64,000 bases of DNA from an uncultured virus (IMG/VR IMGVR_UViG_3300011871_000003) (IMGVR_UViG_3300011871_000003), one strand, 5' to 3'; positions 15,220-55,353 are shown, numbered from the stretch's first letter. Numbers and translations: made by a program. The notes: generated from the letters alone by a model not told the origin.

Positions 15220-15585
15220 ATGAAAGTTTGGATCGATGATGAACGCAACCCTAAAGATTATCTTTCAGAAAAAGATGCTGAAAGTGTTATTTGGATTAAA
15301 GAAATTCGTGAAGCATTGAATTTATTTCTAAAGAAATCAGAAGAAATTGAAGTTTTGTATCTAGATTATTACATGGATAGTCCTGTTATTTTTGGTTCTG
15401 AATTTGTTTTCTATGCAAAACGCGGTGGAAAGAAAATGTTTCCTAACCTAAAATCTATTTATCTTCATTCAAACGATGATGATGCTATTGATGAACTAAT
15501 GGAATTAGCTCCAAATTTAGAAAATCAAGGGATTAGTCTCGAAGTTGCGCCTTATCGTAATAAAAAAGGAAATTGCCGTGGATAA
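15220..15585 (+). CDS. cyclic-phosphate-processing receiver-domain protein (copy 1)
   Basis: KVWIDDERNP, LYLDYYMD, IYLHSND motifs. Confidence 0.6.
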   Translation: MKVWIDDERNPKDYLSEKDAESVIWIKEIREALNLFLKKSEEIEVLYLDYYMDSPVIFGSEFVFYAKRGGKKMFPNLKSIYLHSNDDDAIDELMELAPNLENQGISLEVAPYRNKKGNCRG

Positions 15586-15937
15586 TAAAAATATCTGGAT
15601 TGATGATACACGTAATCCTCATCATTTTTTGCCAAAAACAGAAGCAGAAAATGTTTTGTGGTTGAAAAATATTCGCCAAGCTATTCAGTATGTATCAGAG
15701 CATTCAAAAGAAATTGAAGTATTATATCTTGATTATTATATGGATGATAACTTTCTTTTTGGTTCTGAATTCGTTTACGAGGTTTTATACAGTGGACGAG
15801 AAGGATATCCTCTGCTGAAAACTATCTATCTACATTCCAGTGACGACAATGTTATTGAAGATTTAATGCAACATGAAGAAGAATTTAAAGAAATGGATAT
15901 TTCTTTAGTTATTGCCCCTTATCGCAGAGATTATTAA
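15578..15937 (+). CDS. cyclic-phosphate-processing receiver-domain protein (copy 2)
   Basis: IWIDDTRNP, LYLDYYMD, IYLHSSD; GTG start after AAGGA. Confidence 0.6.
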   Translation: MDNKNIWIDDTRNPHHFLPKTEAENVLWLKNIRQAIQYVSEHSKEIEVLYLDYYMDDNFLFGSEFVYEVLYSGREGYPLLKTIYLHSSDDNVIEDLMQHEEEFKEMDISLVIAPYRRDY

Positions 15938-19472: not shown

Positions 19473-19790
19473 ATGAAAAAAATATTTATGGCTTGTCTTA
19501 TCTGTGCATCAATTTTTGCTTTATCTGGTTGTGAAAAGAGAACCGAAGAAGCAAGCAGTAACTTCATTTTGCCCGAAGGTATGAAAGATTGTGTTATTTA
19601 TAAAATGAATAATGAAAGTGGTATTGTAATCTATGCTATCCGCTGCCCTCTTTCAACTACAACTACAACGATGTTAGGTAAAGTAAATAGTCAGGTAGTA
19701 GTAACAGAAGAAAAAACTAAAGTAGAAACAGCTCCAGTAAAACCTAAAGAAGAAATTGTTGTTAATGGCAAGCATTTTATTGAGAAATAA
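19473..19790 (+). CDS. lipoprotein
   Basis: Lipobox LSGC after a hydrophobic leader. Confidence 0.75.
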   Translation: MKKIFMACLICASIFALSGCEKRTEEASSNFILPEGMKDCVIYKMNNESGIVIYAIRCPLSTTTTTMLGKVNSQVVVTEEKTKVETAPVKPKEEIVVNGKHFIEK

Positions 19791-19883
19791 GAAATAGCAT
19801 AAAAAGAGTTGTGCATAATAATAGAATCAGCTATAGTGGTTTTATAGAGATATCTAATAAAATCTGATTTTGAGGAAAAATAA

Positions 19884-20261
19884 ATGATTAGTATTCATGA
19901 GTTTAAAAATGTAAAACAGTTTGAAGAAGCTATAGAAAAAGAATTTAAAAAGAAAATCTTTCCAATTTCCAAAAAATGGGTCGTAGGTGGTCAAGAAGGA
20001 GGTTCTTGTTGGAATGCAGATCATCATCATTCAGTTTCAGCCGAACCAGAGCCAGAAGATCCAATGGTATTTATTGAATTACTTGAAATGGTTTGTCCAA
20101 ACTTAACATTTTTACAATTTAAAAAGCTTGAGCAGAAATCATTATGGGATATCAGTGAAAAAACTAATTATGAATATTATGGTAACTCCACTGATTATAT
20201 GATTAAAAAGTTGAATACTCAAAATCTGTTTGATGGTTTAAAAGAAATTATACCAGAATAA
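19884..20261 (+). CDS. phage hypothetical protein
   Basis: 125 aa; GG..GGSCW and EYYGN motifs. Confidence 0.75.
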   Translation: MISIHEFKNVKQFEEAIEKEFKKKIFPISKKWVVGGQEGGSCWNADHHHSVSAEPEPEDPMVFIELLEMVCPNLTFLQFKKLEQKSLWDISEKTNYEYYGNSTDYMIKKLNTQNLFDGLKEIIPE

Positions 20262-20273
20262 AAAGGGTTTAAT

Positions 20274-20684
20274 ATGAGAAATATTAAAGTTGTTTTCTAT
20301 GTTGGTTTACCCGGATCAGGGAAAACAACTTTATTATCAAAAATAAAAAAAGGTTTTGTCATTGATGATTTTTCTTTAAATATTGACAAGTTAAATGCTT
20401 TCAAAGCTTCAGAAGAAGAAACCCTATATATTGCTGATCCAATGTTGTGTACGGTAACTATGGAAAAAGCAGAAAGTTCTTTAAATAAAATGTTATTGGG
20501 ATTAATGATAAAAGAAACAGAATGGATTTTTTTCGAAAATAATTTAGAAAATTGTTGGTATAACGTTGAAAACCGTAACGACAATAGAGAAATTAATAAA
20601 GGTTTTATGGAGTATTTATCTAAAAAATATAAAGAAAATTATAGTTTAGAAAATACAATTGCTGTATATAAAAAGGATAATTGA
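20274..20684 (+). CDS. P-loop kinase-like protein (polynucleotide kinase/AAA_33-like)
   Basis: VGLPGSGKT Walker A at the N-terminus; C...V..R lid-like segment. Confidence 0.6.
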   Translation: MRNIKVVFYVGLPGSGKTTLLSKIKKGFVIDDFSLNIDKLNAFKASEEETLYIADPMLCTVTMEKAESSLNKMLLGLMIKETEWIFFENNLENCWYNVENRNDNREINKGFMEYLSKKYKENYSLENTIAVYKKDN

Positions 20685-20692
20685 AAAAGTTC

Positions 20693-20721
20693 TTGCACTA
20701 CAGATAGTGTTTTGCTAGAAT
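20693..20721 (+). promoter_or_regulatory. promoter at the start of the RNA cluster
   Basis: TTGCAC-N17-TAGAAT with extended -10; further promoters at 21129 and 21434. Confidence 0.65.
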
Positions 20722-20747
20722 CATTTCTGTAGTGACAAGTAAAACGT

Positions 20748-20821
20748 GTCTTTGTAGCTTAACGGTAGAGCAGGAGTCTCTAAAACTCTGGATGTGGGTT
20801 CGATTCCCTCCATTGACACCA
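20748..20821 (+). tRNA. tRNA with CUA anticodon (amber suppressor candidate)
   Basis: Cloverleaf with GGAGT-CTCTAAA-ACTCT anticodon arm, TTCGA T-loop and encoded CCA; two U-U mismatches in the acceptor stem and one in the T stem. Confidence 0.75.
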
Positions 20822-20826
20822 AGAAT

Positions 20827-20976
20827 AGGAGAAGCATAGGCACACATTTTCTTAGCTAGCGCTGGTGAAGTTAATGTGGAAGGTAGGTATCCTTTGGTCT
20901 ATGAATAAAGAACAATGTTGAGTCGCTCTCAATAATGTTATTTATCAAGTGAGGTTCGATCCCTCTACTCCTGCCA
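20827..20976 (+). ncRNA. 150-nt tRNA-like RNA with enlarged D and anticodon arms
   Basis: AGGAGAAG/CTACTCCT acceptor-like stem, GAGG-TTCGATC-CCTC T arm, G-CCA end; CATAGGC/GTCTATG and TTGAG/CTCAA stems. Confidence 0.6.
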
Positions 20977-20980
20977 TATT

Positions 20981-21065
20981 GCTCTGATGGTGGAATCGGT
21001 AGACGCGGCAGACTCAAAATCTGTTACCGAAAGGTGTGAGGGTTCAAGTCCCTCTTGGAGCACCA
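20981..21065 (+). tRNA. tRNA-Leu(CAA)
   Basis: Class II cloverleaf, GCAGA-CTCAAAA-TCTGT anticodon arm, long variable arm, CCA. Confidence 0.95.
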
Positions 21066-21078
21066 AATTATGTATTTA

Positions 21079-21113
21079 ACTTCCGGGGTACATCTAGGGT
21101 GACTTCCGGGGTA
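21079..21113. repeat. 12-nt direct repeat ACTTCCGGGGTA x2
   Basis: Copies at 21079 and 21102, just upstream of the 21129 promoter. Confidence 0.7.
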
Positions 21114-21211
21114 AAGTAGAAAAAGTTGTTGATTTTAAGCAGTTAAGTTGGTATATTGTAGTTCTTGAAGTAAAGAAGACTGGTTAAAACTCTAGCTTTT
21201 TATTATTAAGT

Positions 21212-21404
21212 GGATGAAGTCCCGGACTGACGGGAAAGTGTAAGACCTGATGGGAAGTAGATATCGCTGGACGTAATCGGTTAAGTAAGCACGTTGTAAT
21301 CCAGCACTGTCCCAATAAAGCTCCTGTGAAATCTTCGCCCCGGTGAGACTCCGGTGTTAACTAGCAGGTGTTATAGACAAGCTGGAGATCAGTGCCAGCC
21401 ATCC
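21212..21404 (+). ncRNA. structured ncRNA with tmRNA-like termini
   Basis: GGATG/CATCC terminal stem, 5' GGACTGACGGG, 3' GAC followed by GCTGG-loop-CCAGC T-arm-like hairpin; no CCA. Confidence 0.4.
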
Positions 21405-21666
21405 TAAAAAATAAGAAAATAGTAAAAAAGTAGTTGATTATGAGTTTGGGTTTTGGTAAGATGTAGTTCTTGAGGCGGCAATGAGTAGTAATGAAATTCC
21501 ACTACATTGTCTGTAAAGAGCAGAACTTTGAAGCCTCCTTTAATAAAATAGAAAACCTGACCGCTCTGCGATGCCGTAGGGCGAGTGATTAGGATAAGGC
21601 ATACTGCGTTTCGTGGGTGTTTTGTTTAAAGGCGAGAGAGGAATAATCATAAGCTCTCAAAACAAT

Positions 21667-21812
21667 GTCGTATTAGTTTAGTGGTAAAACAGAAGGCGTA
21701 GTCCGAAAACGTAGGTTTAATTCCTGCACTGTCCCAAAAGGAGAGTTGGCTGAGTGTTATAGCGCGGATAGTAGTTCTTCAAGTCTCAGGTTCGATTCCT
21801 GAAACGACACCA
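21667..21812 (+). ncRNA. double-tRNA RNA: a tRNA frame enclosing a circularly permuted second tRNA
   Basis: Outer GTCGT/ACGAC-A-CCA, D arm, GAAG/CTTC, T arm; inner TCCG/CGGA, GTAGG/CCTGC T arm, ACTGTCC/GGAGAGT acceptor, GCT/AGC D arm. Confidence 0.65.
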
Positions 21813-21860
21813 GATATTAGTAGCTAATACTATTATCAAAAAGAAGTAAGGTATTAAAAA

Positions 21861-22055
21861 GCTATTCAAGAGCACCCTCGTTTTAACATCAGTCTCGTAA
21901 ACTGATTAGAGTTAAGCGATTCTGTCGAAATACGTGAGATAGAGTTAACTGGTAGCCCTTCATTGACGCGGATTCGCCTCTGCTGAGAAGATTATAAGTA
22001 TTATTGCGTGATACGATGACTAAACTACCTATATGTTAACAAAGCTTGAATAGTT
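21861..22055 (+). ncRNA. candidate structured ncRNA
   Basis: GCTATTCAAG/CTTGAATAGT long closing stem; ORF-free. Confidence 0.4.
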
Positions 22056-22068
22056 TTAAATTAAAAAA

Positions 22069-22158
22069 TATCAGCAGTTGTTGGAACCAGTGAGGCGTTC
22101 TCCGAGTAATCAGGAGCGTAAACCTTACACCAGTCAGGTTCAAATCCTGATGCTGATA
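22069..22158 (+). ncRNA. tRNA-like RNA lacking a canonical D arm
   Basis: 8-bp TATCAGCA/TGCTGATA stem plus TCAGG-TTCAAAT-CCTGA T arm. Confidence 0.55.
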
Positions 22159-22676
22159 CAAGAATGCGTTCGCGTGTTCAGTTTCTGACTAAGGAGCGAT
22201 GACTCCAACCTAATTGCCAGTTAAATGTTCTGGTAGCTGGTGGAACAGCAAACAAAAAGTTACGTTTCTAAATAAAATAGACGGGGACGGGAAACTTAAA
22301 GCTAATGTCTAGATGGGGCCAGTTTTAGAATCTGGCATGTAGGTAAATCAGATTTCTTCCAAAGTAATTGGATTTACCAATCAAAAATACCTGATGTTGC
22401 GATCAGGGGCATTTTTATAAAAACGAGAGAAATCGCTGAGTGTTTGAGATATTTAAAGCCTCAAACTTCCTCGAACGCCACAAAATTTAAGTTGTGGTCC
22501 TTGCGTTAGAAATATCTGCGGGATAGCTTTTCCAAAGTGAAGTTTCTCAGCCGTCCAACTTGATAGCCCGAATGTGTACGCTTTGCTCGATCCAAAAGGA
22601 TTCTTGTTTAAAGATAATCATTCATTATGGGCAAATGATAGGGATACTGTCGTTTCGACGGGAGTTATTCAAGAAT

Positions 22677-22924
22677 TAGTGCTGTTCTTTAAACTAGCAC
22701 TCGCTTATAGGGTACTCACTATAAGTGTAAATTAATGAGTATAGCTTATAACTGTAGCATAAAAGGTTATAAGCGAATATTATCTGAATGCAGGTTGATT
22801 GCTATAGCGCTTGACGTAATCAATAACAAAGTTGGGGTGAGACTCCCCTTCTTTTCAAAAGGAGGTATAGTGTCTTGCTTCTTTAAATCGACACTCTTGC
22901 CATAGAAAGGTTACTCGCTATGGA
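22677..22924 (+). ncRNA. two copies of a double-hairpin RNA motif
   Basis: 22677-22727 and 22868-22924; shared TTCTTTAAA and GGT(T)ACTC loops with covarying stems. Confidence 0.5.
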
Positions 22925-23157
22925 ATAACAAGAAAAGAGGATGTCTTAGCCGGACTGAAGGCTTAGCGCCAGCCTGTTAGCCTATTAGGGCTGGATTGCG
23001 AAGTAGGAAAAGGCAGGTTGTCTTCAAACCGGTGTAGAAGGCAATATCGGCTCCTTTTCTAATTGGAAAGGAGTTTTATTTTACAAATACATAGACGTTA
23101 ATCAGTTGTTTTGTGGGAAGCCCGTAGCTGCTTCTGATCAGAAGCTCCCACTAAAAA

Positions 23158-23250
23158 GATTGTAAAAGTTGTAAGTTAAGATGGTCCAGACCTACGGGAG
23201 TGTTGCCCTTGATCAGGCATTAATGGTTCGAATCCAACGCTTTTACAATC
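23158..23250 (+). ncRNA. tRNA-like RNA with long terminal stem
   Basis: GATTGTAAAAG/CTTTTACAATC stem enclosing a TGG-TTCGAAT-CCA T-loop hairpin. Confidence 0.5.
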
Positions 23251-23333
23251 AAATTATAAAATTGGTTTTAAAAAGAAGAATAAATATAAAAAAGTATTGT
23301 TTTTCATAAAAGTTTTAGCTATAATGTTTTCAT

Positions 23334-23397
23334 TGGTTAGGGCGTGACGGAGTGCTTTAAGTAGCGCTGGGGTTCAAGTCCCTACATAAACTAATCA
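23334..23397 (+). ncRNA. minimal or degenerate tRNA-like RNA
   Basis: TGGTTAG/CTAATCA stem, AGTGCT/AGCGCT hairpin, GGGG-TTCAAGT-CCCT T arm. Confidence 0.4.
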
Positions 23398-23450
23398 TAG
23401 GAAAAGACTAATATACATCCCTATCAGAGATAGGCAGTGTTTTCCGCAAT

Positions 23451-23535
23451 GCTCCGGTGGCGAAATTGGTAACCGCATTAGGTTTAGGTCCTAACGCCGC
23501 AAGGTTTGTCGGTTCGAGTCCGACCCGGAGTACCA
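23451..23535 (+). tRNA. tRNA-Leu(TAG)
   Basis: Class II cloverleaf, TTAGG-TTTAGGT-CCTAA anticodon arm, CCA. Confidence 0.95.
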
Positions 23536-23539
23536 AACT

Positions 23540-24120
23540 CAAAAGAATAACAGGTGAGACTGATGCTGTTATATCTTCATTTTTCTGTCTGGTTTGAGTT
23601 CCAAAAAGACAGACGGGTATAAGTTCGCTGAAGACGAAAAGGAATGCGAATGTTGACTGGCAGCTTGAACCAGTAGGTGACAACCTTCACCGTTAACTTA
23701 GTCAGATGGTTACAGTTAGTTTAGAGTGTTTATTCGAGTGCCGTCGAGCAATCTCCAAATGCTTAAAACTAAGAGAAGAACGTAGCTATGGCTAACCACC
23801 AGATGCTATAAGCTATAGCCACAAGATAAAGGCCCACTTCAAGCCGTGGTTGAAAAATTTATTAGGGAAGTATAGGGTGGTTCCTTGTTCCCGATTTCTG
23901 TTAGCTTTATTATATGTAACTATTTCTGGTATATGTGATATAAGCTCTCAGAGCCAAGTGAATCCGTAAGCTAATACGGTATGGTTGAGCAGACATGATG
24001 CTGTTGATATTGTTATCCGCAAAACGAATTTGCAACTCGTAAGCGTCTCCATAAACGGCAGTTAAGTAGGAGAATTAGCCCCTACCACTTGTAACTTGAA
24101 ATATCTTAAAGGAACATCTA
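23540..24120 (+). ncRNA. candidate large structured ncRNA(s) downstream of tRNA-Leu
   Basis: ~580 nt without a credible ORF, GC-richer than the coding DNA, many hairpins; boundaries approximate. Confidence 0.4.
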
Positions 24121-24148
24121 CGACTTTAAGGTAAAAATGAAGTAGAAA

Positions 24149-24440
24149 AGAGGAAGTTGGTTATACCATCGTGTAAAAAATCTTGTTTATTTAGTATCAG
24201 GTCATTATAAAGCGAACAAAAAATGACTGAGAAAAGGGACTGGCCCTGACGGATTTTGCGACGAATCGTGAAGCTTCCTCTAATTTGAATATTTAAATAA
24301 ATTAATAGTTAGATAAAAATAAGTTGGCGTTAACGCGCTATCGTAAATGACTGAGGCAAGTATTTGGTAATCACAAAAGCGAACAAAAGATTACAAAGAA
24401 AAGCACACTCTACGACGAATCGTAAAATTTTATAAACTAA
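24149..24440 (+). ncRNA. tandem pair of a ~130-nt structured RNA motif
   Basis: Shared AAGTTGG, AAAGCGAACAAAA, GAAAAG, CGACGAATCGT in the same order; covarying stem GTCATT/AATGAC vs GTAATC/GATTAC. Confidence 0.6.
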
Positions 24441-24542
24441 TAGGATTTTTTAAAATGTTTAAAAATGTTTGTGTAGCTCCTGCCAACATGGGGCATTAGT
24501 CTGGAACAAGCGAAGCCGGGGATGACTATAACCCGGACCATT

Positions 24543-24643
24543 GGTTGTTGGATAGCTGGACACTATGACAGGCGATAAAACAGGTAGCAATACCCTATTG
24601 TGTAGGCTGTTAAGGGCAGGTTCAAATCCTGCGGCAACCACCA
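24543..24643 (+). ncRNA. tRNA-like RNA with CCA end and non-canonical core
   Basis: GGTTGTT/GGCAACC-A-CCA acceptor, GCAGG-TTCAAAT-CCTGC T arm; no standard D or anticodon arm. Confidence 0.6.
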
Positions 24644-24667
24644 CTTCAAAACATGAGAGGTTTTACA

Positions 24668-24892
24668 ATGAAAAAAATCACTCCACATCTGGTAAAAAAG
24701 TTATTCTCAAGAAAATCTCCTCAAAAAAGTTACAACGAGAAACGTTTATTTAAAGCTCTGAAAGAAAATCAAGGAACCTATACCATTAATAAAGATGGTA
24801 TTGTTAAGCTTGATCTAAGCAATCCATTAACTCAAGAAAGAATAATTGAGCAAATAAATAAATGTGGAAATATTAAAACAGAGAGAGCTTAG
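24668..24892 (+). CDS. small hypothetical protein
   Basis: GAGG SD; ends in TAG followed by a terminator-like hairpin. Confidence 0.6.
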   Translation: MKKITPHLVKKLFSRKSPQKSYNEKRLFKALKENQGTYTINKDGIVKLDLSNPLTQERIIEQINKCGNIKTERA

Positions 24893-24979
24893 GCTCTCTT
24901 TTTTGCGTAAATAAATAGATTGCAAGAGATAACAACAATATGTATAATAGCTCAACATTAATCTAAAAAGGTAAAAATA

Positions 24980-26344
24980 ATGACTCTGACCGTAGTAATT
25001 AAACATAATGGTAAAGTAAATAAAGCAGGTAAGTTGAGCGTTATTGATGAGCAAGGAAAAACATTGCTTTCAAAAATTCCTGTAGCAATCCCATTAAAAC
25101 TAAGCAAGAGTTCTTTAGAATATAGCTGTATGGCTAAGGTAATGTCTTTTAATCTTAATAGAGACTTACTTAAAGAAACCTTTAAAGATATCGAAAAAGA
25201 TAAAACGCAATATAAGAATGCGTTTAATGATTTTACAGAAAACGGTATCAATAATAGCTTTATTGTAGCTAATACTATTGTTATTGCTTGTGATCAAGTA
25301 TTGGTAAATGATGAAACAGCTTTCATTATTAAAGATAAAGATTTTAAAACTTTAGTATCTATTCTTTCTCAAAGTGGTAAATCTTTTAAAGTTGAAGTTA
25401 AACATTCATCGTTTATGTTCTTCTTGGAAGATGTTTCTGATTATCAGGTAAAAAATGTACAAGATTTTTACTTCAAAATGCAACAAGAAGAAGTAAATCT
25501 GTCAAACAAAGTTAAAGTTCTGAAAGAAAAAGAACAGCAAAAACAGAAGATTATTACTAAAGTTTCTCAAAAAAATGTAGTTAGTCAGAGGAATAATTTT
25601 GACACTGATCTACTAAATGACCTACTAACTTTTTATAATCCAGAGTTGGCATTAATGTTTAGACCACATTCTACTCTTGCGTGGTTCTTATACTTTAATG
25701 ATTTAGGTGATAATATTAATCAACGTATCATTGATGATAATATCCATAATATTTCTGGTTTTGAAAATGTAGCTTCGAGTGAAGTACGTCATAATCCAGA
25801 GGGTTACACTGTCAAACTTTTTGATGACGTAGATAAAACAAATGAAGTTGGTGTATTGAAGTTTGATACAGCAACTAATTCATGTGAGCTAAAAACTGAA
25901 ACAGGTGAGAAAAATATTATTGTTCCTGATGAATCAGGCAAATTGAATGTTGAGTTTATTTCCAAAAATGGAAGCTCAACAAGTCTGGAAATGGTTCAGG
26001 ATGGTGATAATTTTATTGGTAACTGGCAGACAAATCAGGTTGGAACAGCTCTTGGCGCTGGATTTACATTAGATAGTTCTTTTGATTTTTGTTCTAATGT
26101 AGGAAAAGCAAATGATCTTTCGGGTTATCTATATGTTCCTGAGAAGGAAGTAGAGCAAGAAAATTTTGTAGCTCCTGTAGAGGTGGAAAAAGAAGTTATT
26201 AATCATCAAGCAAGCGTTGTTGAAGATAATAATGTATTCAACCAAACAGTAAGCCCTAGCTATGAACCTGTATACGAAAGTCCAGTTCAAACATCAGCAA
26301 CAGATAATAGTTCTTGGGCGAGTGCTGATCCATATTCAAACTAA
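24980..26344 (+). CDS. hypothetical protein
   Basis: 454 aa, low-complexity C-terminus. Confidence 0.8.
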   Translation: MTLTVVIKHNGKVNKAGKLSVIDEQGKTLLSKIPVAIPLKLSKSSLEYSCMAKVMSFNLNRDLLKETFKDIEKDKTQYKNAFNDFTENGINNSFIVANTIVIACDQVLVNDETAFIIKDKDFKTLVSILSQSGKSFKVEVKHSSFMFFLEDVSDYQVKNVQDFYFKMQQEEVNLSNKVKVLKEKEQQKQKIITKVSQKNVVSQRNNFDTDLLNDLLTFYNPELALMFRPHSTLAWFLYFNDLGDNINQRIIDDNIHNISGFENVASSEVRHNPEGYTVKLFDDVDKTNEVGVLKFDTATNSCELKTETGEKNIIVPDESGKLNVEFISKNGSSTSLEMVQDGDNFIGNWQTNQVGTALGAGFTLDSSFDFCSNVGKANDLSGYLYVPEKEVEQENFVAPVEVEKEVINHQASVVEDNNVFNQTVSPSYEPVYESPVQTSATDNSSWASADPYSN

Positions 26345-40474: not shown

Positions 40475-40768
40475 ATGAAAGAAAAACCTATATTAAGATT
40501 ATTTGCTGACTATTGTTGTGGTTTTGCTTTATGGAACAACTTTGATCATGAGATTCTTGATGGTTCAGAGGAACAGCTAATAGAGTTAGGTATATCTCCT
40601 ACTACTCTTGTTTTATTAAAAGCAATAGTACAGGTTCATGATTGGGAGCCACCAGATGAAGATCCAACAGAAGAGTCTATAGTAGCGTATTCGTATTTAA
40701 TAAATATGGCTAAAGTACGTTTAGAGCACGAAATTGGTGATAGATTTACGATAGTTGTTGTGGACTAA
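40475..40768 (+). CDS. hypothetical protein
   Basis: LRLFADY...LW motif; AAGGA SD. Confidence 0.7.
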   Translation: MKEKPILRLFADYCCGFALWNNFDHEILDGSEEQLIELGISPTTLVLLKAIVQVHDWEPPDEDPTEESIVAYSYLINMAKVRLEHEIGDRFTIVVVD

Positions 40769-40772
40769 AATT

Positions 40773-41216
40773 ATGACAAGAATAAATCTTGTTTCACCAG
40801 AAGAGTTAACAGATCAACATCTGATGAGAGAGTATCAAGAGCTTCCACGTATTGTTGGTCTTGTAAGAAAAGCGATTCATAGGGGAAAAAAGCCTTCTGA
40901 TTTTAAAATAGCTCATGATTATATTCTTGGTTCTGGACACGTCACCTTTTTCTATAATAAACTTGAGTTTCTACAAAAAAGACAACTATTATTGATAGAA
41001 GAATTGCTGAAAAGAGAATACAAAATTATACATCAAAATGGGCTTAACCTTATTGATATTCCAGATGAATGGAAAAGAGATTATATCCCGACCACTAATG
41101 GATTAATGCTATCCAGAGAACGTATAAGAGAAAAAATTTTAATGAAGCCTCATTGGTATAAATATAAAGGTAAGCCAATAGATATTTCTCAATATATAAA
41201 TAAAAATAGGAGTTAA
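40773..41216 (+). CDS. denV: pyrimidine-dimer DNA glycosylase / endonuclease V
   Basis: MTRINLV...LTDQHLMREYQELPRI, LGSGHVTFFYNKL, KP.WY as in T4 DenV. Confidence 0.95.
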   Translation: MTRINLVSPEELTDQHLMREYQELPRIVGLVRKAIHRGKKPSDFKIAHDYILGSGHVTFFYNKLEFLQKRQLLLIEELLKREYKIIHQNGLNLIDIPDEWKRDYIPTTNGLMLSRERIREKILMKPHWYKYKGKPIDISQYINKNRS

Positions 41217-54216: not shown

Positions 54217-55353
54217 ATGAAAGAACAAAATGATTTCCAAAAAACACTGTTTACAGATCTAACCAATCTCGTAAAAAATAGTTCTGGTGAGTTTTTAACT
54301 AAAGATTATAACATCGAAGGTCATCCAAATCTTATTTATCGTGTATTTACATACATGATTCCTCGTTTTTCTGATTTTAAAAATCCAAACGGTCTGAACT
54401 GTCGTGGAACAATGTTCCTTGTTAATAAAGAAACAGGTGAAGCTCAACTGGTTGCTCTTCCAATGAAAAAGTTCTTCTCTCTTGGTGAAGGAGAAAAAGA
54501 AGATCTGGCTATTAAAATTGAAGACGCAAAACATGCTTATATTAAAGAAGATGGTTCTTTGCTAACAAGTTATATTTCTCCAATTGATGGGAAAGTAAAA
54601 CTCAAAAGTAAAAATGTTCCAGAATACCTAAATAAAGATGCTGTAATGAAAAGCGTTTCTGATGCTCTATTTGCTGAACTGCAGGAAATCAGCGAGAGTG
54701 GTATTTCTGTAGATCTTGAACTGACTACACCAGAAAACCGTGTAATGATGGAATATTCTGATTATAATGTCCATGTTCTTAAAGCTCGTTCTCTTGAGAC
54801 TGGAGAATATATTGATATTCGCTCTAAAGAATTCGCTGAAAAATATCCAGTAATTGCTGAACATCTTGTGAAAGAAGTTCCTGTAAGCAGTGTAGATATT
54901 AATCGTAAAGATATTGAAGGGTATGTTCTTGAGTTTGCTGATGGAAGGCTGCTCAAAATTAAAACTATTCCGTATCTGAGTATTGTAAGTGTTATTAGTA
55001 TTCAAGACCTCAATAAAGAAGGTGAAAATCTTTATCGTGCTGCTTTAGACGAAGTGCTTGATGAAGTTCGCTCTATGTTTGTTTACAAGGCTCGTAGCCC
55101 TAACTATAATCTTGATCAGCGTCTTGCTAATGTAGATAAAGTTGAAGCATATGCAAAACGAACGTATCACGATATGGTTAAAAAAGTAAATGAGCTATAC
55201 GAGAGTAATAAACATCTAGAACGTGGTGATTTTGCGCGTGCTGTTAAAGATGAAAAACAACTAATGCCTTTGCTTATGCAGCTATATACAGGTGGTAAAG
55301 CTGATTACAAACAAACAGCTATTAAAATTTATGCTAAAAATGCTCTAAAATAA
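54217..55353 (+). CDS. rnlA: T4-like RNA ligase 1
   Basis: CRGTMF, PMKKFFSLGE, motif I KEDGSL, motif IV EGYV, motif V KIK (rnlA in the T4 gp63 sense, not the RNase LS toxin). Confidence 0.9.
   Translation: MKEQNDFQKTLFTDLTNLVKNSSGEFLTKDYNIEGHPNLIYRVFTYMIPRFSDFKNPNGLNCRGTMFLVNKETGEAQLVALPMKKFFSLGEGEKEDLAIKIEDAKHAYIKEDGSLLTSYISPIDGKVKLKSKNVPEYLNKDAVMKSVSDALFAELQEISESGISVDLELTTPENRVMMEYSDYNVHVLKARSLETGEYIDIRSKEFAEKYPVIAEHLVKEVPVSSVDINRKDIEGYVLEFADGRLLKIKTIPYLSIVSVISIQDLNKEGENLYRAALDEVLDEVRSMFVYKARSPNYNLDQRLANVDKVEAYAKRTYHDMVKKVNELYESNKHLERGDFARAVKDEKQLMPLLMQLYTGGKADYKQTAIKIYAKNALK

Follow-up and report, generated by a model that had tools for sequence, protein, structure and literature searches.

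A two-headed tRNA-like RNA gene of a jumbo phage, in which two tRNA bodies with swapped halves are joined through their anticodon-type stems

The window, that is, the whole 64,000-nt stretch of uncultured-virus DNA analysed here, carries on its plus strand a 146-nt gene (positions 21667–21812) for a two-headed tRNA-like RNA in which two tRNA bodies, here called X and Y, are cross-paired and joined through their anticodon-type stems. We consider it somewhat better than an even bet (a probability of about 0.55) that the product is a stable, non-decoding RNA in which one tRNA body scaffolds a head like that of the YrlA-type Y RNAs and which works as a Y RNA does.

The window is phage DNA of about 30% G+C. 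A near-identical relative, a 341,648-bp IMG/VR contig (G002, the same as G001), carries a copy of the element at 87673–87818 on its minus strand, and the window is thus placed in a jumbo phage. The element lies in a gene-poor stretch of 3.8 kb (about 20700–24500) that is richer in G+C than the window, and neither strand of 21316–22036 holds an ORF of at least 40 aa. Three ordinary tRNA genes are found inside the stretch, namely one with the anticodon CUA (20748–20821), which is of the amber-suppressor type and has two U·U mismatches in its acceptor stem, tRNA Leu-CAA (20981–21065) and tRNA Leu-UAG (23451–23535). A second CUA tRNA is present in a cluster of G002 (L044), and the genes of the window read normally under table 11.

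From 5' to 3' the element runs X 5' half, Y 3' half, CAAAA, Y 5' half and X 3' half ending in ACCA, all on the plus strand. The X 5' half (21667–21696), as delimited from the sequence, comprises the acceptor strand GTCGTAT, U8 and A9, the D arm GTTT-AGTGGTA-AAAC, A26 and the stem strand GAAGG. Its D loop has the canonical A14, G15, G18 G19 and A21, and a blastn search against phages returned a 20-nt identity between this D arm and tRNA-Asp genes of Bacillus phages. The top strand of the central internal loop, CGTA (21697–21700), is invariant in four of four sequences and leads into the Y 3' half (21701–21734), which is made up of the stem strand GTCCG, a variable region AAAAC, the T arm GTAGG-TTTAATT-CCTGC, with U replacing C56 in its loop, and the acceptor 3' strand ACTGTCC. 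A 5-nt linker, CAAAA (21735–21739), closes the Y acceptor stem and has no encoded CCA. The Y 5' half (21740–21769) then supplies the acceptor strand GGAGAGT, U8 and G9, the D arm GCT(G)-AGTGTTA-(T)AGC, with a single G where GG is usual, G26 and the stem strand CGGAT; in the same kind of blastn search the 21 nt from 21736 to 21756 proved identical to a tRNA-Ser gene in a Bohxovirus record. The bottom strand of the central loop, AGTAGT (21770–21775; placed from fold and sequence), is followed by the X 3' half (21776–21812), with the stem strand TCTTC, a variable region AAGTC, the T arm TCAGG-TTCGATT-CCTGA, the acceptor strand AACGAC, the discriminator A and an encoded CCA, a feature commonly shared by G002's ordinary tRNA genes. 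In X, C48 is present for the G15:C48 Levitt pair and the T loop carries UUCGA.

Two tRNAs with swapped halves had been proposed in an earlier, sequence-only reading, whose strings and coordinates all proved correct, and the pairing confirms this structure. When each 5' half is paired with the 3' half of its own body across the other body, the X acceptor (GTCGT at 21667 with ACGAC-A-CCA at 21804–21812) forms 6 of 7 pairs and the X anticodon-type stem (GAAGG at 21692 with TCTTC at 21776) all five. The Y acceptor (GGAGAGT at 21740 with ACTGTCC at 21728) likewise forms 6 of 7, the remaining position being G·G, and the Y anticodon-type stem (CGGAT at 21765 with GTCCG at 21701) 5 of 5. This gives 22 of 24 paired stem positions, whereas the tandem reading gives 8 of 24 (acceptors 2/7 and 3/7, anticodon stems 1/5 and 2/5). 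The joint chance of the cross-pairing is 2.5 × 10⁻⁸ given the element's own base composition, and 2 × 10⁻⁶ if three registers are allowed for each helix.

The dumbbell is reproduced by an unconstrained MFE fold, and the ensemble agrees, with base-pair probabilities of 0.85–0.97 for the X acceptor, 0.52–0.82 for the X stem, 0.88–0.98 for the X T arm, 0.78–0.85 for the Y stem, 0.85–0.99 for the Y acceptor and 0.96 for the Y T arm. The A-U-rich D stem of X is weak (0.23–0.30), and the folding energy of the element as a whole is unremarkable (z = −1.13, with 26 of 200 shuffles folding equally well). Both stems open into the same central loop of 4 × 6 nt, which has a G·U closing pair on each side and could stack through C31-G108, G·A, U·U and A·G, with A104 and U109 bulged.

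The element is represented in RNA libraries. Contigs from three of four RNA runs, drawn from libraries of three studies, cross it intact (X15, 21246–22190; X17, 21083–22099; X19, 21450–22078), and in X17 the depth over 21170–21970 is 113, above the 0–37 found in bins of the flanking genes and the 0 found over 24374–25441. In the adjacent non-coding DNA of the same run it reaches 5,120 (22298–23667) and 125,000–223,420 (23573–24373). Such uneven depth argues for RNA over DNA carry-over; contigs of this kind are blind to the ends, the strand and the level of the element's RNA. Among the contigs listed, those of X20 leave the part between 21640 and 21835 uncovered and have adapter sequence at this place, and we count this gap in cover as no finding. 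Our promoter scan did no better than shuffled sequences (8 found, 9.4 expected), and a terminator-like hairpin (21604–21616) lies just upstream of the element. The Y 5' half resembles the units at 21115 and 21420, for which reason an internal promoter was considered there; with a spacer 4 nt short, we judged it unlikely.

We scanned viral, metagenome and genome contigs for the pattern of the element, and the only homologues found were three near-identical copies, L002/G002 (also L009, L017 and L067), L033 and L040. The other 18 of 20 metagenome matches were tandem tRNAs or unrelated insert-bearing tRNAs. The model CM R1, built on the 146-nt element, scored 190.3 bits on the G002 copy; it found no second two-headed copy in G002 and no full-length relative in 14 further loci. 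A 150-nt hit of this model in a Parcubacteria MAG (L071) was rejected, as it consists of two ordinary tandem tRNAs with identical acceptor stems; with such stems a swapped fold would be equally possible there. A synteny search with two flanking proteins led only to the same relative, tblastn of a 454-aa neighbour protein against phage records gave nothing, and blastn of the element against phages gave only tRNA-arm matches of 19–36 nt.

The sequence-only reading had looked to homologues and their covariation for a check, and this came out in part. Homologues exist, and none of them shows two independent canonical tRNAs, but all are near-identical strains, in which 37 of 38 pairs are invariant, one varies one-sidedly and none changes in a compensatory way. 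Two of the 146 columns vary among the four sequences and both changes are structure-neutral: in L002 a G to A change in the Y T stem (CCTGC to CCTAC) turns U·G into U-A, and in L033 and L040 the linker is CGAAA (A to G) as against CAAAA. As far as these close relatives can speak, comparative support for the fold is absent, not negative. Compared with L033, the element has one change in 146 nt and its flanks 24 mismatches and 8 gap openings in 935 nt; compared with L009, the figures are 1/146 and 7/1964. By these counts, conservation of the element does not clearly exceed that of its flanks, which are equally non-coding.

Found in a single phage lineage, with neither covariation nor excess conservation, the element might instead be a functionless relic of recombination among tRNA genes, or of a tandem duplication followed by loss, transcribed only by way of a busy RNA operon. 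The elbow and acceptor positions of Y are indeed degenerate, and this body looks weaker than a real tRNA (G·G in the acceptor stem and U/U at the G19:C56 positions). Y-like and X 3'-half-like pieces recur nearby (21293–21315; GTAGTTCTT at 21158, 21463 and 21771), as fits local duplication, and the region is littered with other tRNA-fragment-like hairpins. Nevertheless, we regard a relic as rather unlikely, if a serious rival. In each body the halves are set apart, so that complementarity had to be kept up across the other body, and random rearrangement would not keep four inter-half helices at 22/24. Moreover, X keeps every canonical tertiary nucleotide as well as the encoded CCA, the two strain differences leave the structure intact, G002 contains no canonical Y-like tRNA that could be a recent donor, and the same phage keeps several other insert-bearing tRNA bodies.

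The reading that we prefer, a stable non-decoding RNA that works like a Y RNA, draws on the comparison with YrlA. The heads of YrlA-type Y RNAs, which partner Ro60/Rsr, mimic tRNA in circularly permuted order, with the T arm first, then a loop-closed acceptor stem and then the D arm (PMC4201824; 10.1101/312249). The Y module of the element (21701–21769) has its T arm, closed acceptor stem-loop and D arm in this same order, and the Rfam YrlA model (RF02553) aligns in register, laying its T arm, acceptor stem-loop and D arm onto those of Y. As in YrlA (RF02553; Chen et al. 2014, PMC4201824), the permuted head is entered through an anticodon-type stem and has no anticodon. Its closed acceptor stem has seven positions like those of M. 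smegmatis YrlA, a 7-bp stem reported to be cut by RNase P and to receive CCA (PMC4201824), and of a candidate from Bacillus phage G described below. The anticodon-less, bivalent tRNA mimic with two elbows put forward in the sequence-only reading agrees with the sequence and the fold, and with the YrlA-type Y RNAs as the nearest known class.

The differences from YrlA are equally plain. As described in PMC4201824, the 5'-3' stem of YrlA contains GNCGAAN0-1G, the Ro60 site, and the D- and T-stem sequences are nearly invariant. In the element, by contrast, a complete second tRNA body, equipped with an acceptor stem and CCA, takes the place of the Ro60-binding 5'-3' stem. The motif as defined is absent, and there is only CGAA/GUCCGA at 21701–21708, a 4-mer expected by chance. 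The YrlA model scores 12.0 bits at the element (E 9.5, cut-off 69) with the D and T stems unmatched, and the element is not among the 13 weak YrlA hits in G002. Because it scores 12 bits against 69 and lacks both the conserved stem sequences and GNCGAAN0-1G, the element is by these measures not a member of the YrlA family.

A tRNA body that confers stability, as well as RNase P and CCA-type processing, on a cargo replacing the anticodon arm is also familiar from the tRNA-like domain of tmRNA, from mascRNA and from viral TLS, and the element resembles them in this respect. Engineered tRNA scaffolds likewise use the tRNA body for processing and stability of a cargo in the anticodon arm. The element differs from all of these in that its cargo is a second tRNA-shaped body. 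Our literature search, which ran outside subscription journals, found no description of a tRNA body with a permuted tRNA replacing its anticodon loop.

Some jumbo phages carry TROVE, a protein that in cells works with a tRNA-like partner (PMC7824862), and a phage Ro60 has been reported to bind Y-like RNAs with a CGAA motif and to damp PNPase (PMC12135203). As in YrlA systems, a Ro60/TROVE gene is present, in this case in the near-identical genome G002 and outside the window. Its ORF, at about 28.0–29.7 kb on the minus strand, encodes a protein of 559 aa with a Pfam score of 26.8 bits (cut-off 23), an E-value of 6e-17 to the solved Ro60 of Thermus phage phiLo and a DNSGS MIDAS-like motif, and its closest relative in phage records is gp540 of Bacillus phage G (42% identity). 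We tentatively take Ro60/TROVE to be the partner of the element, a possible assignment that falls short of being probable. The known YrlA genes treated in PMC4201824 lie within about 4 kb of Ro60, whereas the element is about 58 kb from the TROVE gene of G002, on the same strand, and no YrlA or tRNA hit was found nearer than about 8 kb to that gene. The upstream leader of the TROVE gene, about 250 nt long, has a CGAA hairpin of its own, and the leader RNA could be the real Ro60 partner rather than the element.

YrlA-like candidates were found beside other phage TROVE genes. In phage G, a permuted YrlA-like hit of 36.2 bits, below the cut-off, is located 2.1 kb upstream of gp540 on the same strand (L054 3757–3843); in this unannotated candidate the acceptor stem is 7 bp long, ACCA is present and the closing loop measures 21 nt. 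Three unannotated YrlA-like hits lie just upstream of the TROVE gene of Caulobacter phage CcrPW (L058 3802–4409), also below the cut-off at 33.4, 30.5 and 29.9 bits. The TROVE loci of HGTV-1, SRB7757, phiKT1024 and cr111_1, four of the six other phage loci, gave no YrlA hit at E ≤0.5.

If the element does work like a Y RNA, X would be the tRNA scaffold, and RNase P together with the tRNA 3'-end machinery would excise the RNA from its precursor and protect it. The working part would be Y plus the central rod of about 14 layers with GUCCGA/CGAA. The element would dock on a protein, most plausibly the Ro60/TROVE homologue of the near-identical phage, and its tRNA-like elbows would, in the course of infection, be offered to a further partner, such as PNPase or some other protein that binds tRNA. 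A second RNase P cut, at 21739/21740, would yield two base-paired 73-nt chains and is conceivable because the Y acceptor has seven pairs, as in M. smegmatis YrlA (PMC4201824). In a bolder version, which we think decidedly improbable, the bivalent Y RNA would become a 'domain-swapped double tRNA'. RNase P would cut at the G+1 sites 21667 and 21740, and the 73-nt chains X5'-Y3' and Y5'-X3' would remain paired and form two L-shaped bodies whose acceptor ends are both free. One end would bear the encoded CCA, and the other would acquire CCA once trimmed, as is the case for M. smegmatis YrlA; with its central rod docked on the phage Ro60, the pair would bridge two tRNA-binding factors.

The binding partners of the tRNA-like head and the origin of bacterial and phage Y RNAs are treated as open questions in PMC4201824 and 10.1101/312249. 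Under the dimeric-tRNA model of Sim and Wolin (2018, as quoted in 10.1101/312249), the YrlA T arm derives from a first tRNA and the D arm from a second, and the left-over D and T arms become the outer stem. The element still has the whole set of four arms of such a dimer and, unlike in the model as quoted, the left-over parts still make up a full tRNA body. Since the sequences of X and Y differ, no fold but the swapped one is possible. With the four dimer arms preserved in this swapped arrangement, the element comes closest so far to the model's hypothetical intermediate, and if the 'domain-swapped double tRNA' were true it would be a present-day instance of the dimeric-tRNA origin proposed for Y RNAs. 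The lineage occurs in many samples in our sequencing-run search and has a near-identical relative with Ro60, which makes it a clonable test case.

A tRNA-shaped decoy or competitor unrelated to Ro60 would soak up a factor of host or phage that recognises the elbow, the acceptor or CCA, be it a toxin or defence nuclease that targets tRNA, a modification or processing enzyme or EF-Tu. It makes the same structural claim as the Y-RNA reading, and the evidence does not distinguish them. The two elbows and one free CCA end would suit a decoy, the distance to the TROVE gene weakens the link with Ro60, and the phage devotes much to supplying tRNAs and repairing RNA. In G002, 36 tRNA hits exceed the Rfam cut-off, and the window encodes an Rnl1-type RNA ligase (54217–55353), two adjacent cREC_REC domain proteins (15220–15937), an RnlB-antitoxin-like protein (43095–43487) and a T4 endonuclease V-like protein (40755–41216), among which the ligase, cREC and RnlB-like proteins fit the RNA-repair theme described for jumbo phages (PMC7824862). 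We nonetheless hold a decoy to be unlikely. The anticodon nucleases suggested as its target in the sequence-only reading have to be dropped altogether, because the element has no anticodon loop for them to recognise.

Judged from its sequence, the element is not a decoder, and neither body can have an anticodon loop. Only X has the cloverleaf of a canonical tRNA, with five clean acceptor pairs and one more and with the elbow nucleotides. A 5-bp stem with a 7-nt loop containing U33 and an anticodon is absent from both bodies, and however the two loop strands are joined into 7-base loops, for X or for Y, U33 does not occur. ARAGORN finds no tRNA at the element under default settings and calls circularly permuted Y only at 90% of threshold (-ps90). 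The Rfam tRNA model (RF00005) gives two local hits of 23.7 and 20.1 bits, both without an acceptor stem, where the cut-off is 29. A tmRNA was not reported by ARAGORN, nor is there such an Rfam family at the element. We also considered pairing of the three UAG triplets of the central loop with the phage's CUA-anticodon tRNAs, and nothing was found in support.

With introns allowed, ARAGORN calls X a tRNA(tta) with a 72-nt 'intron', the succession of 3' half, linker and 5' half is that of a permuted tRNA gene, and the phage has an Rnl1-type ligase. The element might accordingly be read as a nested pre-tRNA, from which the insert is excised, X being ligated into a working tRNA and permuted Y being circularised and opened into a second tRNA, in the manner of permuted tRNA genes of algae and archaea. 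This is very improbable. The 'UUA' loop of the ARAGORN call, CGTTAGT, has G at position 33, and no other 7-base joint provides U33. The 4 × 6 loop contains no bulge-helix-bulge (3-4-3), and G002 has no match to the tRNA-splicing endonuclease (tRNA_int_endo, PF01974) or to RtcB. Among the contigs listed from the four RNA runs, which drop rare and short forms, no splice joint spans the insert. The missing U33 joint, bulge-helix-bulge, endonuclease and RtcB, and the uncut contigs in three of the four RNA runs, also speak against the sequence-only suggestion that the RNA is processed into split tRNAs. For a group I intron, there is no Intron_gpI match and the insert has 72–74 nt where about 200 nt or more is needed. 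The permuted tRNA genes of Cyanidioschyzon merolae and Thermofilum pendens have the same order of 3' half, short linker and 5' half, but are described as yielding decoding tRNAs through a cut at a bulge-helix-bulge, circularisation and RNase P/Z (PMC3978253, PMC3218864), whereas the element has neither a bulge-helix-bulge nor a U33 loop and no splicing endonuclease was found in G002.

Two ordinary tandem tRNA genes of 73 nt each are refuted by the sequence: although a D arm and a T arm are normally spaced in both 73-nt halves (the local Rfam hits of 23.7 and 20.1 bits), the acceptors and anticodon stems of the tandem reading pair as poorly as reported above, ARAGORN fails on the first such reading even at -ps80 and gives only a truncated call on the second at -ps80, and both Rfam hits are below the cut-off with the acceptor stem missing.

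G002 holds four more tRNA bodies in which the anticodon loop is replaced, by 15, 59, 73 and 77 nt. All are on the minus strand of their loci: the body with the 73-nt insert is found at about 298.3 kb (L005 99–229), that with 59 nt at about 181.0 kb (L006 107–225), and those with 15 and 77 nt at about 182.1 kb (L007 170–250 and L007 32–166, respectively). The body at L007 170–250 folds with a closed extended arm, GAUUC-GUG-GGC-AAA-GCC-GUG-GAAUC. Together with the element, they suggest that in jumbo phages tRNA bodies serve to scaffold non-decoding RNAs.

Several other tRNA-related features were observed in these sequences. The tRNA clusters of G002 (L044–L046; 169.5–191 kb and 297.5–300.8 kb) repeat a trio of tRNA(UCU), tRNA(CAU) and tRNA(UAA), which accounts for 23 of 33 ARAGORN calls and fits the A/U-ending codons AGA, AUA/AUG and UUA. 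In the metagenome contigs L026 and L028, a tRNA body GGTTGGA.../...TCCGACC is interrupted behind its D arm by about 100 nt. Within the window, T-arm-bearing tRNA-like stretches that tRNA finders leave uncalled are located at 22071–22160, 23152–23250, 23338–23396, 24553–24645 and 20950–20966. By inspection, the first of these has a 7-bp acceptor stem, ATCAGCA/TGCTGAT, five pairs of which appear in the MFE fold, and the stretch at 24553–24645 ends in GGCAACC-A-CCA.

The sequence GTAGTTCTT has exactly three copies in the 64 kb, all on the plus strand, at 21158, 21463 and 21771, with spacings of 305 and 308 nt. The first two copies directly follow promoter-like sequences, TTGATT-N17-TATATT/TAAGAT, and the third coincides with the bottom strand of the central loop and the X stem; the three contexts align weakly. 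GTTGTAATCCAGCACTGTCCCAA (21293–21315) is 83% like 21715–21737, which runs from the Y T loop through the linker. Further short paralogues of Y pieces, some of them D-arm-like, are found at 22427–22444, 22793–22821, 21339–21355 and 22833–22849, and some in this set, 21293–21315 included, may be due to chance; a hairpin GG-TGAGACT-CC is repeated among these sites. Strains also differ around the element: an 893-nt stretch (19790–20684) is replaced by 35 nt in X19 and X20, 16 nt are inserted after 21919 in all relatives, and 10 nt are inserted after 21858 in X19 and X20.

The adjacent non-coding DNA is the source of an extremely abundant RNA in metatranscriptomes. Over 23573–24373 the depth is 125,000–223,000 in X17, up to 13,551 in X20 and 4,388 in X19, compared with 0–37 for nearby genes. 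No Rfam family is found there at E ≤10. The stretch formed by 22298–23667 and 23573–24373 contains the repeats AAAGCGAACAAAA... and CGACGAATCGT, and the RNA from 23573–24373 may be a large phage ncRNA.
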